Below are positions 1 through 4,230 of a DNA stretch of 4,270 nt, piece by piece. The stretch is taken from IMG/VR virus record IMGVR_UViG_2711768074_000007, positions 1 to 4,270 of that record. One strand, given 5' to 3'. The translations under genes were made by a program, and so were the position numbers. How positions within the stretch are numbered: position 1 is the first letter of the stretch; every line of letters begins with the position of its first letter. A model generated the notes under the pieces. That model did not search any database. It was not told where the DNA came from and saw only the letters and a program-made list of their open reading frames with translations. Source of the stretch: a virus. Taxonomy: Duplodnaviria; Heunggongvirae; Uroviricota; Caudoviricetes.

Positions 1-132
1 GTTGGTACGGGATGCTATCACGGCGATGCCCTGACGGTTTATCCCTACACCCCGGAGTCCATTATTGTCGAAGGGGATTATTTCCCTGCCCCAGCCATTC
101 ATTTAATTGATAATCTGAGAGTAAACGCATGA
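1..132 (+). CDS. 3' end of upstream late gene (partial; probably a baseplate protein by P2-like gene order). Frame 1 is open from the window edge to TGA at 130..132
   Basis: Frame 1 has no stop from position 1 until TGA at 130-132, which overlaps the tail fibre ATG (ATGA overlap at 129-132), typical of coupled phage late genes. No start codon in window. Product is inferred only from position upstream of the fibre gene. Confidence 0.4.
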   Translation, partial: VGTGCYHGDALTVYPYTPESIIVEGDYFPAPAIHLIDNLRVNA

Positions 133-1694
133 CAGTGAAATACTACGCCATTCTGACTAATCAGGGCGCGGCACGACTGGCTAACGCGACGATGCTCGGC
201 AGTAAGCTGAATCTGACGCAAATGGCCGTTGGTGATGCAAATGGTGTGTTACCAACACCAGACCCTGCACAAACAAAACTGATTAACCAGAAACGCATTG
301 CACCGCTGAATCTTCTGAGTGTTGACCCTAACAATCAGAGCCAGATTATTGCGGAGCAAATCATCCCTGAAAACGAGGGAGGATTCTGGATCCGTGAGAT
401 TGGTCTTTATGATGATGAAGGTGTACTCATTGCGGTGGCAAACTGCCCGGAAACGTACAAACCGCAGTTGCAGGAAGGCAGTGGACGCACCCAGACTATC
501 CGCATGATTCTGGTTGTCACGAACACCGAAGCCATCACGCTGAAAATCGACCCGTCTGTGGTTCTGGCAACCCGCAAATATGTGGATGATAAAATATCAG
601 AGCACGAACAGTCACGACGTCACCCGGACGCCTCGCTGACCGTAAAAGGTTTTACTCAGTTAAGCAGTGCAATTAACAGTGAATCAGAAACACTGGCCGC
701 AACACCGAAAGCGGTTAAGGCTGCATATGACCTGGCTAACGAGAAATATACCGCCCAGAACGCCACCACTACACAAAAAGGGATTGTTCAGCTCAGTAGC
801 GCCACGAACAGCACGTCTGAAACACTGGCAGCGACACCAAAAGCTGTTAAGGCGGTAATGGATGAAACGAACAAGAAAGCACCATTAAACAGCCCGGCAC
901 TGACCGGAACGCCAACAACACCAACAGCGCCACAGGGGACTAATAGTACCCAGATCGCAAGCACGGCTTTCGTTATGGCCGCGATTGCCGCACTTGTAGA
1001 TTCGTCACCTGATGCACTGAACACGCTGAACGAACTGGCTGCGGCGCTGGGCAATGACCCGAATTTTGCGACCACCATGACTAACGCGCTTGCGGGTAAG
1101 CAACCGAAGGATGCCACCCTGACGGCGCTGGCGGAGCTTGCTACATCAGCAGATAAACTCCCATATTTTACAGGGGCAGATCGTGCCGCGTTAACCGCGT
1201 TGACAAGTGTTGGACGTGCCATTCTTGGTAAAACCAGCACTCAGGGAGTTCTTGATTACCTTGGTTTGGGAGAAGGCTCTGCATTACCGGTTGGGGTGCC
1301 TGTTCCGTGGCCTTCAGCCACTCCGCCAACGGGCTGGCTGAAATGTAACGGTGCAGCATTTTCTTCTGAAATGTATCCCAGACTGGCAAGGGCTTATCCC
1401 ACCAATAAATTACCGGATTTACGCGGTGAATTTATCCGTGGCTGGGATGATGGGCGCGGGATTGATGCGGGACGTACCCTGCTTTCAGGGCAGGATGGTA
1501 CAAGTTTTTCTCATTACGGAGGTAATTTCGACATTGGGTCTGGTCATTCAATCAATAACTATGACCAAATTGTTTCTAACCAACCAGGCTTTTCCCGTTT
1601 TTCATTTGCAGGGCCTTCACGAGGCGGTGGGGTTAATTATGTAACCATTCGTCCTCGTAATATTGCGTTTAATTACATCGTAAGGGCAGCATGA
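129..1694 (+). CDS. Tail fibre protein, P2 gpH-like. Constant shaft is codons 1-378 (129..1262); the C-terminal ~143 codons (1263..1691) are variable tip cassette V1, currently expressed
   Basis: 521-aa ORF. N-terminal region (MTVKYYAILTNQGAARLANAT...MAVGDANG...GFWIREIGLYDDEGVLIAVAN) and repeated QLSSA(I/T)NS(E/T)SETLAATPKAVKA motifs match what I recall of P2 H / Mu S type tail fibres. C-terminus contains the LPDLRGEFIRGWDDGRG motif shared by all cassettes in the window. Confidence 0.92.
   Translation: MTVKYYAILTNQGAARLANATMLGSKLNLTQMAVGDANGVLPTPDPAQTKLINQKRIAPLNLLSVDPNNQSQIIAEQIIPENEGGFWIREIGLYDDEGVLIAVANCPETYKPQLQEGSGRTQTIRMILVVTNTEAITLKIDPSVVLATRKYVDDKISEHEQSRRHPDASLTVKGFTQLSSAINSESETLAATPKAVKAAYDLANEKYTAQNATTTQKGIVQLSSATNSTSETLAATPKAVKAVMDETNKKAPLNSPALTGTPTTPTAPQGTNSTQIASTAFVMAAIAALVDSSPDALNTLNELAAALGNDPNFATTMTNALAGKQPKDATLTALAELATSADKLPYFTGADRAALTALTSVGRAILGKTSTQGVLDYLGLGEGSALPVGVPVPWPSATPPTGWLKCNGAAFSSEMYPRLARAYPTNKLPDLRGEFIRGWDDGRGIDAGRTLLSGQDGTSFSHYGGNFDIGSGHSINNYDQIVSNQPGFSRFSFAGPSRGGGVNYVTIRPRNIAFNYIVRAA
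1249..1274 (+). other. Crossover site 1 (Gin/Hin/Cin-type 26-bp site, direct orientation, core TT at 1261-1262) at the constant/variable junction of the tail fibre gene
   Basis: ttcttgattacc-tt-ggtttgggagaa: 12-bp half-sites around a 2-bp core. Inner half ggtttgggagaa is identical to the inner half of site 5 in inverted orientation. Identity with the other repeat copies begins exactly at the core. Falls in the Y-L-G-L-G-E codons. Confidence 0.65.
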
Positions 1695-1722
1695 AAACGT
1701 TGGTTTGGGGGAAGGCTCTGCG
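1261..1722. repeat. Left copy of a ~462-bp inverted repeat (core of site 1 through V1 and site 2)
   Basis: By eye, identical to the reverse complement of 3719..4180; the embedded ORFs 1351..1644(+) and 3796..4089(-) translate to the same 97 aa, and V1 equals V5 at protein level. Confidence 0.8.
1688..1713 (+). other. Crossover site 2 (direct orientation, core TT at 1700-1701); overlaps the V1 stop codon and the start of cassette V2
   Basis: agcatgaaaacg-tt-ggtttgggggaa. Left half carries the TGA stop of the tail fibre gene (gca gca tga); right half encodes G-L-G-E of cassette V2. Confidence 0.65.
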
Positions 1723-2163
1723 TTGCCCGTTGGTGTGCCCGTTCCATGGCCCTCAGCCACGCCGCCAACGGGGTGGCTGAAATGTAACGGCGCAGCATTT
1801 TCTTCTGAAATGTACCCCAATCTGGCAAAGGCCTACCCCACCAATAAATTACCGGATTTACGCGGTGAATTTATCCGTGGCTGGGATGATGGGCGCGGGG
1901 TGGATGCCGGAAGGGGCATCTTAAGCATGCAGGGGTGGTTAACAGGAAGTCATTATCATAATATTCGGTCATGGGATGCGTGGGATAACACGGTGCTGGT
2001 GCCAAATGACAAAGGAGGGGATAGTCTGTTGTCGACAGATAACGCCGTCCGGCAAGGTGCAATTAACGGTAGATTTACCAGTCAATACAGAACTGAATCC
2101 TCAGAGGGGAATGAAACCCGCCCACGCAATATTGCCTTCAATTATATTGTGAGAACCGCATAA
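1705..2163 (+). CDS. Silent alternative tail-fibre tip cassette V2 (no ATG and no ribosome-binding site of its own; would be expressed only after DNA rearrangement fuses it to the constant part)
   Basis: Open frame begins just after an in-frame TAA at 1681-1683; the ORF track starts it at TTG 1705. N-terminal 65 aa are nearly identical to V1 (GEGSALPVGVPVPWPSATPPTGWLKCNGAAFSSEMYP...DLRGEFIRGWDDGRG); C-terminus is ETRPRNIAFNYIVRTA; the middle is divergent. Confidence 0.8.
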   Translation: MGEGSALPVGVPVPWPSATPPTGWLKCNGAAFSSEMYPNLAKAYPTNKLPDLRGEFIRGWDDGRGVDAGRGILSMQGWLTGSHYHNIRSWDAWDNTVLVPNDKGGDSLLSTDNAVRQGAINGRFTSQYRTESSEGNETRPRNIAFNYIVRTA

Positions 2164-2774
2164 TGAATAACGCGATATTAAATGATGACCTTATTGCCGT
2201 ACAGGCAGGAAACATCGTCGTTTATAACTATGATGGTGAGACACGGGAATATATTTCCGAATCAACTGAATATCTTGCTGTGGGTGTCGGTATTCCGGTA
2301 AATTCCTGTTTAGATGCCCCGGGCGCACATAAAGCGGGCTATGCTATCCGCCGTTCGGAGAATTTAAGTTCATGGGAGTATGCGCCAGACCATCGTGGTG
2401 AAACCGTCTATAGCACTGACACGGGAAACACCGAAGAAATCACGGCGCTGGGTGACTACCCGAAAAATACAACCACTATCGCCCCGTTAACACCATACGA
2501 TAAATGGGATGGTGAAAAATGGGTGACAGATACTGAGGCACAACATCGTGCCGCAGTAGAAGCGGCAGAAACCAAGCGTCAGTCACTGGCTGATGCGGCA
2601 ATGGCTTCCATAAGTCTGATTCAGTTGAAGTTGCAGGCCGGGCGGAAGTTGACGCAGGCAGAAACCACCCGGCTTAATGCCGTGCTGGATTATATAGACG
2701 CGCTGAACGCAATGGATATAAACATGGCACCAGATATCAACTTGCCGGAAATACCACTGGCAGCAGCCAGTTGA
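2163..2774 (+). CDS. Tail fibre assembly chaperone (Tfa / P2 gpG / Mu U-like), cognate to cassette V2
   Basis: 203-aa ORF whose ATG overlaps the V2 stop (TAATG at 2161-2165). Position immediately downstream of a fibre tip, and its size, fit tail-fibre assembly proteins; family assignment is from memory, not a search. Confidence 0.7.
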   Translation: MNNAILNDDLIAVQAGNIVVYNYDGETREYISESTEYLAVGVGIPVNSCLDAPGAHKAGYAIRRSENLSSWEYAPDHRGETVYSTDTGNTEEITALGDYPKNTTTIAPLTPYDKWDGEKWVTDTEAQHRAAVEAAETKRQSLADAAMASISLIQLKLQAGRKLTQAETTRLNAVLDYIDALNAMDINMAPDINLPEIPLAAAS

Positions 2775-2780
2775 ATATAA

Positions 2781-3257
2781 CTAAGCCGCCCTTACGATAT
2801 AGTTAAATGCAATATTGCGGGGGCGGGTTTCACTACCACCTGTGTTACCAATACTTCCTCGTGAATGAAGCGTTGGTGATGGAATCAAACTCCCTCCTGT
2901 ATTTGTGGCATCAAGCCCCCTGCCTTGCGTATATGTTTTTTTGAAAATCGTGGCCAACTCCCATTCATCCTTTGTGTCATATCCATCGTTAGCTACAACA
3001 ATATGGCGGTGTTTTTCCAACATCCCGTTTTGAATGCTCAATAAAGCGCGTGCCGCATCAATTCCTCGCCCATCATCCCAGCCACGGATAAATTCACCGC
3101 GTAAATCCGGTAATTTATTGGTGGGGTAGGCCTTTGCCAGATTGGGGTACATTTCAGAAGAAAATGCTGCACCGTTACATTTCAGCCACCCCGTTGGCGG
3201 CGTGGCTGAGGGCCATGGAACGGGCACACCAACGGGCAGCGCAGAGCCTTCCCCCAA
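2781..3257 (-). CDS. Silent alternative tail-fibre tip cassette V3 (inverted orientation)
   Basis: Minus-strand ORF with the same conserved N-module (GEGSALPVGVPVPWPSATPPTGWLKCNGAAFSSEMYPNLAKAYPTNKLPDLRGEFIRGWDDGRG) and C-terminus (ETRPRNIAFNYIVRAA), with a unique middle. Begins at crossover site 3; no ATG. Confidence 0.8.
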   Translation of the reverse strand: MGEGSALPVGVPVPWPSATPPTGWLKCNGAAFSSEMYPNLAKAYPTNKLPDLRGEFIRGWDDGRGIDAARALLSIQNGMLEKHRHIVVANDGYDTKDEWELATIFKKTYTQGRGLDATNTGGSLIPSPTLHSRGSIGNTGGSETRPRNIAFNYIVRAA

Positions 3258-3273
3258 ACCAACGTTTTCATGC
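3248..3273 (-). other. Crossover site 3 (inverted orientation, core AA on the plus strand at 3260-3261)
   Basis: ttcccccaaacc-aa-cgttttcatgct; its reverse complement is identical to site 2. Overlaps the start of V3 and the stop of V4. Confidence 0.65.
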
Positions 3274-3735
3274 TGCCCTTACGATGTAATTAAACGCAAT
3301 GTTATGGGGGCGTGTTTCAGATGCTGTGCGAACTGAGCGAGAGGCGTCGAATGCCCATACAGAAGCACCATATCCTTCAATGATCTCAGTTGGTTGTAAG
3401 CCTACTGATAATATAGAGTCAGTTTGACTAAATGGTCCTGAATTAAGCGCATCTTCAAAAAGCTGAGTACGCCCAAAAGTGCCAACTATATTCTGAATAG
3501 CGTCAGACTGTGCAGACAGTAGGTTGCGCCCATTATCAACGCCCCGTCCGTCATCCCAGCCGCGAATAAATTCGCCCCGTAAATCCGGTAATTTATTGGT
3601 GGGGTAGGCCTTTGCCAGATTGGGGTACATTTCAGAAGAAAATGCTGCGCCGTTACATTTCAGCCACCCCGTTGGCAGCGTGGCTGAGGGCCATGGAACG
3701 GGCACACCAACGGGCAGCGCAGAGCCTTCCCCCAA
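3268..3735 (-). CDS. Silent alternative tail-fibre tip cassette V4 (inverted orientation)
   Basis: Minus-strand ORF with conserved N-module (one substitution, SATLPTGW) and conserved C-terminus (ETRPHNIAFNYIVRAA), with a unique middle that looks AT-richer by eye. Begins at crossover site 4. Confidence 0.8.
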   Translation of the reverse strand: MGEGSALPVGVPVPWPSATLPTGWLKCNGAAFSSEMYPNLAKAYPTNKLPDLRGEFIRGWDDGRGVDNGRNLLSAQSDAIQNIVGTFGRTQLFEDALNSGPFSQTDSILSVGLQPTEIIEGYGASVWAFDASRSVRTASETRPHNIAFNYIVRAA

Positions 3736-3752
3736 ACCAACGTTTTCATGCT
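3727..3752 (-). other. Crossover site 4 (inverted orientation, core AA at 3739-3740)
   Basis: ttcccccaaacc-aa-cgttttcatgct, identical to site 3. Overlaps the start of V4 and the stop of V5. Confidence 0.65.
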
Positions 3753-4174
3753 GCCCTTACGATGTAATTAAACGCAATATTACGAGGACGAATGGTTACA
3801 TAATTAACCCCACCGCCTCGTGAAGGCCCTGCAAATGAAAAACGGGAAAAGCCTGGTTGGTTAGAAACAATTTGGTCATAGTTATTGATTGAATGACCAG
3901 ACCCAATGTCGAAATTACCTCCGTAATGAGAAAAACTTGTACCATCCTGCCCTGAAAGCAGGGTACGTCCCGCATCAATCCCGCGCCCATCATCCCAGCC
4001 ACGGATAAATTCACCGCGTAAATCCGGTAATTTATTGGTGGGATAAGCCCTTGCCAGTCTGGGATACATTTCAGAAGAAAATGCTGCACCGTTACATTTC
4101 AGCCAGCCCGTTGGCGGAGTGGCTGAAGGCCACGGAACAGGCACCCCAACCGGTAATGCAGAGCCTTCTCCCAA
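3746..4174 (-). CDS. Silent tip cassette V5 (inverted orientation); protein identical to the currently expressed V1
   Basis: Translation from the TTG at 4174..4172 gives GEGSALPVGVPVPWPSATPPTGW...GGGVNYVTIRPRNIAFNYIVRAA, identical to residues 382-521 of the 129..1694 product. The ORF track extends the frame upstream to an ATG at 4231, which I treat as a fortuitous extension through site 5. Confidence 0.8.
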   Translation of the reverse strand: MGEGSALPVGVPVPWPSATPPTGWLKCNGAAFSSEMYPRLARAYPTNKLPDLRGEFIRGWDDGRGIDAGRTLLSGQDGTSFSHYGGNFDIGSGHSINNYDQIVSNQPGFSRFSFAGPSRGGGVNYVTIRPRNIAFNYIVRAA

Positions 4175-4191
4175 ACCAACGTTTTCGTCTT
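4166..4191 (-). other. Crossover site 5 (inverted orientation, core AA at 4178-4179); outermost site next to the invertase gene
   Basis: ttctcccaaacc-aa-cgttttcgtctt. Inner half ttctcccaaacc is the exact reverse complement of the inner half of site 1; the outer half differs from sites 3 and 4. Confidence 0.65.
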
Positions 4192-4230
4192 TATCCCTAC
4201 CTATACCAACTATGTATTTTTCACGAAACA

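Follow-up and report, generated by a model that had tools for sequence, protein, structure and literature searches.

Several swappable fibre tips served by one assembly-chaperone gene are an already known and normal arrangement in the family of phage tail-fibre shufflons. The window, a stretch of 4,270 bp that constitutes the complete contig CYGG01000171.1 of a draft assembly, carries such a locus: a Min/p15B-type multiple-inversion tail-fibre region (shufflon) of a P2-like E. coli prophage, with five tip cassettes and one tfa gene. In a survey of 28 loci with at least three collar cassettes, drawn from E. coli chromosomes, P1-like plasmids and IMG/VR, all but one (27/28) encode exactly one tfa for their 3-9 cassettes. 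As this observation concerns gene arrangement, a test against chance is inapplicable. Probably a single Tfa, directed at the shared scaffold, serves every tip in trans; for V1, V3 and V4 we infer this from sequence comparison.

Gene layout and the V1/V5 duplicate

The gene coordinates and layout proposed in the earlier note were borne out by an open-reading-frame check (Table 1). As described there, the chaperone gene lies directly 3′ of V2 only, V1, V4 and V5 being without one, and the stop codons of tfa and V3 converge across 6 bp. The same note saw no room for a terminator between these two genes, and a scan detected no terminator-like hairpin at the tfa/V3 junction. The ATG of tfa at 2163 overlaps the stop codon of V2 (TAATG). 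V2, tfa and the convergent V3 make up the conserved core module of the family, and V2 is the sole cassette ever directly upstream of the present tfa type in the E. coli family. At the other end of the fibre gene, the gene annotated as ‘phage tail protein I’ in relatives ends 4 nt inside it.

Table 1. Features of the window, with positions counted from its first letter.
Feature	Position	Strand	Remarks
P2-type tail protein I gene, 3′ end	1..132	+	overlaps the fibre gene start (ATGA)
Tail-fibre gene, P2 H-like	129..1694	+	open reading frame; matches to PF12571, PF03406 and PF07484
Constant part of the fibre gene	129-~1256	+	now joined to tip cassette V1 (1257-1694)
Crossover-like site A, constant/V1 junction	1254..1274	-	pattern search
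Crossover-like site B, V2 start	1693..1713	-	pattern search
Silent tip cassette V2	1696/1705-2163	+	collar N part, 73-aa variable insert with HxH, collar C-terminal segment
tfa, sole tail-fibre assembly chaperone gene, 203 aa	2163..2774	+	PF02413, PF28596; TGA 2772-2774
Spacer between the convergent tfa and V3 stops	2775..2780		6 bp, ATATAA
Silent tip cassette V3, convergent with tfa	2781..3266	-	stop 2781-2783; open reading frame and PF07484
Crossover-like site C, V3 start	3249..3269	+	pattern search
Silent tip cassette V4, without chaperone gene	3268-3735/3744	-	open reading frame and PF07484
Crossover-like site D, V4 start	3727..3747	+	pattern search
Cassette V5, exact inverted duplicate of V1	3746-4183/~4190	-	sequence comparison with V1
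Crossover-like site E, V5 start, adjoining the invertase	4166..4186	+	pattern search
Serine DNA invertase, first 8 codons (MQIGYIRV), cut by the contig end	4247..4270	+	identical to the start in L001

A crossover-like site, TTCYCCCAAACCAASGTWWTC, opens every cassette, the pattern search having found five where none is expected by chance. The sites share an AAACC-AA core, two of them pointing one way and three the opposite way, and are themselves coding sequence: each encodes the GLGEG start of its cassette in frame with the fibre shaft. The eight invertase codons in the window equal the start of a ‘recombinase family protein’ in a related locus (L001), and the gene at this position in relatives contains PF00239 and PF02796. 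A serine invertase recombining the five sites would give the constant shaft its C-terminal tip, which could be any of the four distinct ones. Natural isomers (L002, L009, L011, L015) contain the same cassettes and the same Tfa, differing in cassette order, orientation and fusion to H. In the P2-like prophage shufflon of EPEC E2348/69, four isomers, validated by PCR, and three alternative C-termini coexist (Goldberg et al., 2014; PMC4272514).

The earlier note had counted five tips; five cassettes are indeed present, but since V5 repeats V1 exactly in inverted orientation, the distinct tips number four. Positions 1261-1722 and the reverse complement of 3718-4179 agree over 462 bp with zero mismatches, a span that covers V1/V5 together with the adjoining spacer and site. 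Because the whole window is a draft contig, the duplicate could be the path of an assembler through a mixed inversion population. It is quite possible, though we lean against it, that a short-read assembler passed twice through the same V1 DNA of a mixed-isomer culture, yielding V5, and that the five-cassette layout is partly artefactual. The duplicate is missing in most relatives, and passages of the account of the FRphi shufflon warn about such assembly limits for non-clonal populations (PMC13418256). A genuine duplication is nevertheless favoured by the complete genome 23CRST001 (L006), which has V3(-), V4(-) and a copy of its H-fused cassette (-), with a different V1 allele. It also has a precedent in P1, where long inverted repeats bound the invertible C segment.

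Tip cassettes and the Tfa protein

A profile search found the Collar domain (PF07484) in all five cassettes, which also match T4 gp37 (2XGF) at E 6e-14 in an alignment that takes in both the N part and the NIAFNYIVR motif at the end. Between cassettes, identity reaches 95-100% in the conserved N part but only 22-29% in the inserts. By these matches, each cassette is assigned to the T4-gp37/lambda-Stf type, a collar domain interrupted by a variable insert, in which about 75 conserved N-terminal residues and the last 14 residues are predicted to form the collar and a 63-79-aa receptor-binding insert to lie between them. In gp37, the collar domain D10 consists of residues 811-881 and 1010-1026, the latter closing the domain, and the needle is inserted into it (PMC6957217). 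The conserved RPRNIAFNYIVRAA segment of the cassettes recurs as the C-terminal motif of T4 gp37 (...KNIAFNYIVRLA) and gp12, and is likewise predicted to be the closing segment of the collar domain and not a self-chaperone. The suggestion that the tips might fold by themselves through this segment finds no support: gp37 has the same motif and still requires gp38 (PMC3004832).

The inserts of V2 (SHYH) and V3 (KHRH) contain an HxH motif that is absent from V1 and V4. An AF2 model of the V1 monomer alone, built from a 5-sequence alignment, reached a pLDDT of 33, too low for the model to be used. The tips without their own tfa contain no stop codons and have pN/pS ratios of 0.09 (V1), 0.13 (V3, across 22 alleles from 48 loci) and 0.18 (V4); they are under purifying selection and count as functional genes.

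The product of 2163-2774, which the earlier note had taken for the chaperone, is a genuine tail-fibre assembly protein. It matches PF02413 at E 1.9e-31 (109.3 bits, against a curated cut-off of 22.1), its N-terminal part matches PF28596 (Caudo_TAP_N), and it shares 76% identity with HK97 Tfa along the full length. Identity is lower with lambda Tfa (35%) and T4 gp38 (32%) over residues 17-123, and a PDB sequence search with Tfa returned no match. By homology, it can be classed with the gp38/lambda-Tfa chaperones. The order of collar then Tfa recurs in essentially all surveyed loci. In favour of a shared chaperone, Ur-lambda Tfa is reported to substitute for T4 gp38 in gp37 folding (Montag, 1989, cited in PMC9659904); a point against it is that in Mu the Tfa N-domain reportedly binds the distal fibre tip specifically (North, 2019, summarised in PMC9608196).

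One chaperone and several tips

Three explanations had been offered for the tips that lack a chaperone gene, and of these a single chaperone serving them in trans is the best supported, by the family rule, by the tracking of the collar by Tfa and by the purifying selection on the tips without tfa. One chaperone gene most likely serves several tips because all of them share the conserved collar scaffold, and scaffold-directed action in trans would explain why a single tfa is kept for 3-9 cassettes. Tfa would most likely recognise this scaffold or the C-terminal region, not the variable insert, so that one tfa copy in trans would be sufficient to trimerise whichever tip is fused.

Variation among the surveyed loci is consistent with such recognition. 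Tfa N-domain identity tracks collar identity rather than insert identity, the Spearman correlation across 595 locus pairs being 0.65 for the former and 0.21 for the latter; because the pairs are non-independent, p-values were set aside and these correlations are effect sizes only, confounded by shared ancestry. Tfa N-domains from 8 clusters occur beside V3-type inserts, and conversely a single Tfa cluster has 3 unrelated insert types as neighbours. In L091, an unrelated insert is followed by a Tfa whose identity to that of the window is 88% in the N-domain and 93% in the rest. Tfa proteins found beside 14 insert types are uniformly conserved and contain no hypervariable patch. Pairing goes by tip class: where two-tip relatives retain a second, short Tfa, it belongs to a non-collar tip.

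Tfa might instead be matched to V2 alone, the two forming an ancestral stf-tfa pair of the HK97/lambda kind, with V1, V3 and V4 folding via host chaperones or their own collar/C-terminal nucleation. This would fit the exclusive position of V2 ahead of tfa with overlapping stop and start codons, and the clustering at 90% identity, where the majority of Tfa N-domain clusters have a single adjacent insert cluster and vice versa, a 1:1 pairing that could be explained by physical linkage or by fine-tuned specificity. It would also fit the antisense orientation of tfa in half of the isomers (8 of the 16 scorable loci), which is unavoidable when V3 is fused to H (e.g., L011, L104), and the precedent of T4 gp12, whose collar domain is served by gp57A and not by a Tfa (PMC3004832). 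We nevertheless consider it unlikely. Nineteen two-tip phages encode a dedicated Tfa of this class (74-77% identical) directly after a V3-type tip, so such a chaperone normally accompanies V3-type tips, and wherever a single-tip collar locus was sampled intact, a Tfa gene lay beside it. A dedicated chaperone is also needed by gp37, with the same collar and C-terminal motif, and Tfa lacks a variable patch matched to the inserts. One locus, L106, was considered as a collar tip without Tfa and rejected, as an IS1 sits at the tfa position.

The orientation of tfa raises a further reading, that functional fibres come only from isomers in which tfa is co-oriented with the fibre gene, and that the antisense ones, including every H-V3 state, are tolerated, unproductive by-products. 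Scans for a promoter of tfa are compatible with it: none of sigma-70-like type was found on the + strand from 350 to the tfa start, hits overall being at the level of shuffled sequence, and the one Ogr-type TGT-N12-ACA dyad (4213-4230) equals the chance expectation and has, on our own reading, no usable -10 at the right distance. In L001, moreover, a bidirectional terminator-like hairpin with a 12-bp stem lies between the invertase and gpU stops and would block the convergent tail operon. In passages of the FRphi account, only one of three locked tip states infected the tested host, which may be a matter of host range (PMC13418256). The reading is made very unlikely by V3, which is never co-transcribable with tfa and yet has the highest conservation in the core module and is under purifying selection (pN/pS as given above), and by the natural loci, whose tfa orientations (8:8) have no bias towards the productive one.

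Read-through from the convergent FI-U tail operon was considered as a source of transcripts for a flipped tfa; the L001 hairpin weakens this idea, and it is inapplicable to the P1-like plasmids, in which lysis genes follow the invertase. Since tfa is antisense in about half of the isomers, and always with V3, yet V3 is under strong purifying selection, the family may hold something undescribed. Orientation-independent expression of tfa (e.g., from an unrecognised promoter travelling with the V2-tfa module) or chaperone-independent folding of some gp37-type collar tips would be a candidate, which we regard as possible but doubtful.

The window stops 24 nt into the invertase gene and E. coli genomes usually hold several tfa genes (median number of places with a match in a genome, 2), but chaperones encoded elsewhere, whether past the invertase or within another prophage of the cell, are an extremely improbable answer: ten closely related E. 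coli loci have convergent gpU and tape-measure genes directly after the invertase and no tfa there, contrary to the further gene that the earlier note had envisaged, the P1-like plasmids have the same single tfa, and a dependence on other, unrelated prophages would not be inherited together with the phage itself.

If one Tfa folds any collar-scaffold tip, scaffold and chaperone would together be a platform for swapping receptor-binding inserts, and such swaps would be feasible in P2-like phages, P1-like phages and tailocins without re-engineering the chaperone each time. The analysis also corrects an annotation habit, as silent cassettes are now labelled as separate ‘phage tail protein’ genes. 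Its scientific weight is that of a modest point on a known system.

Comparison with known systems

The Min systems of p15B and of P1-like (IncY) phage-plasmids, p15B being judged via the P1-like records, resemble the present locus in having a serine invertase, many crossover sites within the fibre gene, collar-type 3′ cassettes that lie in either orientation, and a single tfa in mid-region. The N-terminal part of the invertase of Punavirus vB_EcoM-673R5 is 97% identical to the type found at this locus. The backbones differ, being P2-like here (I and H upstream, gpU and tape measure downstream) and P1 R-S there, and up to 9 cassettes occur there compared with 5 in the window. The premise of the earlier note that every tip of p15B-type systems has its own chaperone is contradicted by P1-like Min-type loci with 5-9 cassettes (L003, L065, L066), which have one tfa each; a one-to-one layout does hold for two-tip relatives.

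The E2348/69 shufflon belongs to the same element family, its DNA being 97% identical (PMC4272514). Its Tfa (WP_001057723.1) is 99-100% identical to that of the window and lies in the same core of V2, tfa and convergent V3. It has three cassettes with V2 fused to H, whereas the window has five, four of them distinct, with V1 fused.

In the Mu G (Gin) and P1 C (Cin) segments, a serine invertase likewise exchanges the fibre C-terminus at an intragenic site, and genes of the tfa family lie within the invertible DNA. These segments have two tips, each followed by its own Tfa (U, U′), in contrast to the one Tfa and 3-9 tips of a single structural class found here; the window, with one tfa for five cassettes, departs from the one-to-one ratio of the Mu G/P1 C type. 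The two-tip relatives phage 500465-2 and Kp4846-2 follow the Mu/P1 pattern, each tip having its own Tfa. The FRphi shufflon of Enterobacter, compared by its description only, has three alternative fibre C-termini and a Gin-like recombinase, and related loci have up to six paralogs; the passages of that account examined contain no discussion of chaperones (PMC13418256).

The modules of T4 (gp37/gp38), Ur-lambda and HK97 (Stf/Tfa) share with the cassettes a collar with a variable receptor-binding insert, the NIAFNYIVR motif and a chaperone gene directly downstream (PMC9659904; PMC6957217). They are single, fixed tip-chaperone pairs without inversion, and the inserts of the present locus measure 63-79 aa compared with 128 aa for T4 D11.

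Gene content of the invertible region

The 203-residue product of tfa is a tail-fibre assembly protein, as the earlier note had supposed. It matches PF02413 (E 1.9e-31) and, in its N-terminal part, PF28596. Over its full length it shares 76% identity with HK97 Tfa; identity is 35% to lambda Tfa and 32% to T4 gp38 over residues 17-123. The coordinates previously assigned to the convergent stops of tfa and V3, 6 bp apart, are all correct. Crossover-like sites (TTCYCCCAAACCAASGTWWTC) number five in the window against none expected by chance; every cassette has one at its 5′ end, with two in one orientation and three in the other. At their conserved 3′ ends, V2 and V3 make up a 61-nt inverted repeat (2102-2162 and 2782-2842, 77% complementary) that exactly flanks tfa and, on a read-through transcript, could pair and enclose its coding region.

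Features of the window
Feature	Position	Strand	Remarks
P2-type tail gene I, end	1-132
Fibre gene, 521 aa	129-1694		domains Phage_tail_fib, Phage_fiber_2, Collar
V2, silent cassette	1696-2163
tfa ORF, 203 aa	2163-2774	plus	stop TGA 2772-2774
V3, silent cassette	2781-3266	minus	stop 2781-2783
V4, silent cassette	3268-3744	minus
V5, silent cassette	3746-4183	minus
Serine invertase, first eight codons	4247-4270

Five tips had been counted; five cassettes are indeed present, but V5 is V1 inverted and only four tips are distinct. Positions 1261-1722 match 3718-4179 in reverse complement without a single mismatch, giving an inverted duplicate of 462 bp that spans the whole of V1 together with the spacer and the crossover site that follows. 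As the window is the entire contig CYGG01000171.1 of a draft assembly, the duplicate could be the assembler's path through a culture of several inversion isomers. Against this, the complete genome of strain 23CRST001 (locus L006) has the same order, with V3 and V4 on the minus strand followed by its own H-fused cassette repeated in inverted form, the duplicated cassette being a different allele from V1/V5.

Chaperone genes per locus

Collar cassettes, Tfa homologues, invertases and fibre N-termini were mapped with profile HMMs in loci from E. coli genomes, plasmids, GTDB genomes (Tfa as query) and IMG/VR, where a cassette served as query and the presence of Tfa was not presupposed. Exactly one tfa is found in 27 of the 28 loci with at least three collar cassettes, which carry three to nine each. 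The sole multi-cassette locus with more than one tfa, the IMG/VR contig L070, has two, and its V3-type cassette is duplicated (I< C> T< C< C> T> C< FC< H<). P1-like loci follow the same plan, L065 having nine cassettes and one tfa. The premise that each tip of p15B-type systems has its own chaperone therefore fails for these records. A V2-type cassette, tfa and a convergent V3-type cassette form a constant core in each of the 12 E. coli chromosomal loci of the window's family, the cassettes outside it being variable.

One Tfa per tip is found in two-tip relatives (500465-2, Kp4846-2 and many IMG/VR contigs), in which a collar tip and long Tfa converge with a short 146-residue Tfa and its non-collar tip, followed by the invertase. 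A second chaperone is retained where the two tips differ in structural class, and not where all tips are collar tips. The short class, beside a non-collar tip and transcribed towards the long Tfa, recurs at L020, L022, L024-L029, L053, L059 and many IMG/VR loci.

Six P2-like loci of Photorhabdus (L032-L034, L037, L041, L043) carry two collar cassettes in direct orientation and one Tfa (H> C> C> T>); an invertase (I>) follows about 300-700 bp downstream in five, none being detected in L043, and no inverted cassette was detected in the six. In L006 an ISVsa5-family element (4836-6166) splits the single tfa, and in the IMG/VR contig L106 an IS1 (5512-6209) stands in its place. These insertions would be natural tfa knock-outs in a multi-tip and a single-tip locus, respectively.

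Pairing of Tfa with collar and insert

The five cassettes have in common some 75 nearly invariant residues at the N-terminus and the last 14, whereas identity over the intervening 63-79 residues is only 22-29%. They match the receptor-binding tip of T4 gp37 (2XGF, E 6e-14) and gp12 as far as the C-terminus, where gp37 ends in KNIAFNYIVRLA; gp12 carries RPWNISLNYIIK. The collar domain D10 of gp37 consists of residues 811-881 and 1010-1026, with needle D11 inserted into D10 (PMC6957217); the conserved RPRNIAFNYIVRAA segment is accordingly the closing piece of the collar domain and not a built-in chaperone. The proposal that tips fold unaided through this segment also conflicts with gp37 itself, which carries the same segment and still requires gp38 (PMC3004832). 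About 12 residues into the insert, V2 (GSHYHN, ~1950-1960) and V3 (EKHRHI, ~3010-3030) have HxH motifs resembling the metal-binding ones of the gp37 needle. Several other cassette types have them too (AHRHE, DHAHY, DHSHN); V1, V4 and HK97-like inserts do not. These patterns suggest two structural sub-classes of insert.

We favour, with moderate confidence, a single Tfa shared by the tips and acting in trans, the best supported of the alternatives raised earlier; one Tfa probably suffices for several tips. Tfa similarity tracks the collar, not the insert: across 35 loci (595 pairs), Tfa N-domain identity has a rho of 0.65 with collar identity and 0.21 with insert identity, quoted as effect sizes only because locus pairs are not independent. 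Tfa remains similar beside an unrelated insert, as in HK97, 813R1 and Kp4846-2, whose inserts are 23-25% identical to V2 and whose Tfa N-domains are 65-81% identical to the window's. In 500465-2 the insert is V1-like (54%), yet both collar (52%) and Tfa N-domain (30%) have diverged. V3-type inserts adjoin Tfa proteins of eight N-domain clusters, three unrelated inserts adjoin a single Tfa cluster, and conservation is even, with no hypervariable patch, in an alignment of Tfa proteins neighbouring 14 insert types.

A V3-type tip directly followed by a Tfa of the window's class (74-77% identical to the window's) occurs in 19 two-tip phages; V3-type tips are therefore normally accompanied by such a chaperone. 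Among the single-tip collar loci found with the cassette as query, all intact ones have a Tfa alongside, the sole exception having IS1 at the tfa position. According to Montag 1989 (cited in PMC9659904), Ur-lambda Tfa is able to substitute for T4 gp38. The tfa-less tips are not decaying: insert pN/pS is 0.09 for V1, 0.13 for V3 (48 loci, 22 alleles), 0.18 for V4 and 0.21 for V2, and the allele sets contain no stop codons in V1-V4 inserts. That Tfa is required by V2 only is unlikely; at 90% identity most Tfa N-domain clusters do pair 1:1 with the adjacent insert, a pairing that physical linkage explains, though fine specificity would do so as well.

Supply of Tfa in the inverted state and known systems

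Since tfa is carried along with the V2-tfa-V3 module, many isomers have it antisense to the fibre gene (8 of 16 scorable loci), and those with V3 fused always do (e.g., L011, L104). No sigma-70-like promoter was found on the tfa strand. The window contains a single Ogr-type dyad (TGT-N12-ACA, the P2 Ogr/late-promoter motif), no more than chance predicts (mean 1.34). It lies at 4213-4230, within the 56 bp that separate the last crossover site from the start of the invertase gene, and is poorly placed, with, on our reading, no good -10 at the expected distance. In the related locus L001, a hairpin with a 12-bp stem (AAAACCGCTAAT...ATTAGCGGTTTT, 10396-10425) between the convergent stops of invertase and gpU looks like a bidirectional terminator and argues against read-through from the convergent tail operon into tfa. 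Isomers with antisense tfa might be unproductive, although we consider this improbable. These features and the 1:1 cluster pairing are why confidence in a shared Tfa is kept moderate beside three rivals, and the provision of Tfa when tfa is inverted is the point most deserving of experiment. The last rival, further chaperones encoded elsewhere, has very little to recommend it.

At the DNA level the window shares 96-98% identity with P2-like prophages of E. coli chromosomes, and 3,411 of 5,426 complete genomes contain a match to some part of it. A chaperone beyond the invertase, as the earlier note had also envisaged, is absent from ten relatives (L001, L002, L005-L012), in which convergent gpU and tape-measure genes directly follow the invertase. 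In these ten the sheath-tube-E-T-U tail operon points towards the fibre operon, with the invertible region in between; in P2 itself both operons run in the same direction. In the E2348/69 copy (L002) there are three cassettes, and its Tfa shares 99-100% identity with that of the window. This is the locus in which Goldberg et al. documented by PCR three inverted repeats, four isomers existing side by side and three alternative C-termini (PMC4272514). The same region is found in ~96-kb P1-like phage-plasmids (233 plasmid records) and Punavirus genomes, the N-terminal part of the invertase being 97% identical. The one-tfa layout is the usual arrangement in a known family with experimental documentation, and the region is a multiple-inversion system of the Min/p15B type on a P2-like backbone.
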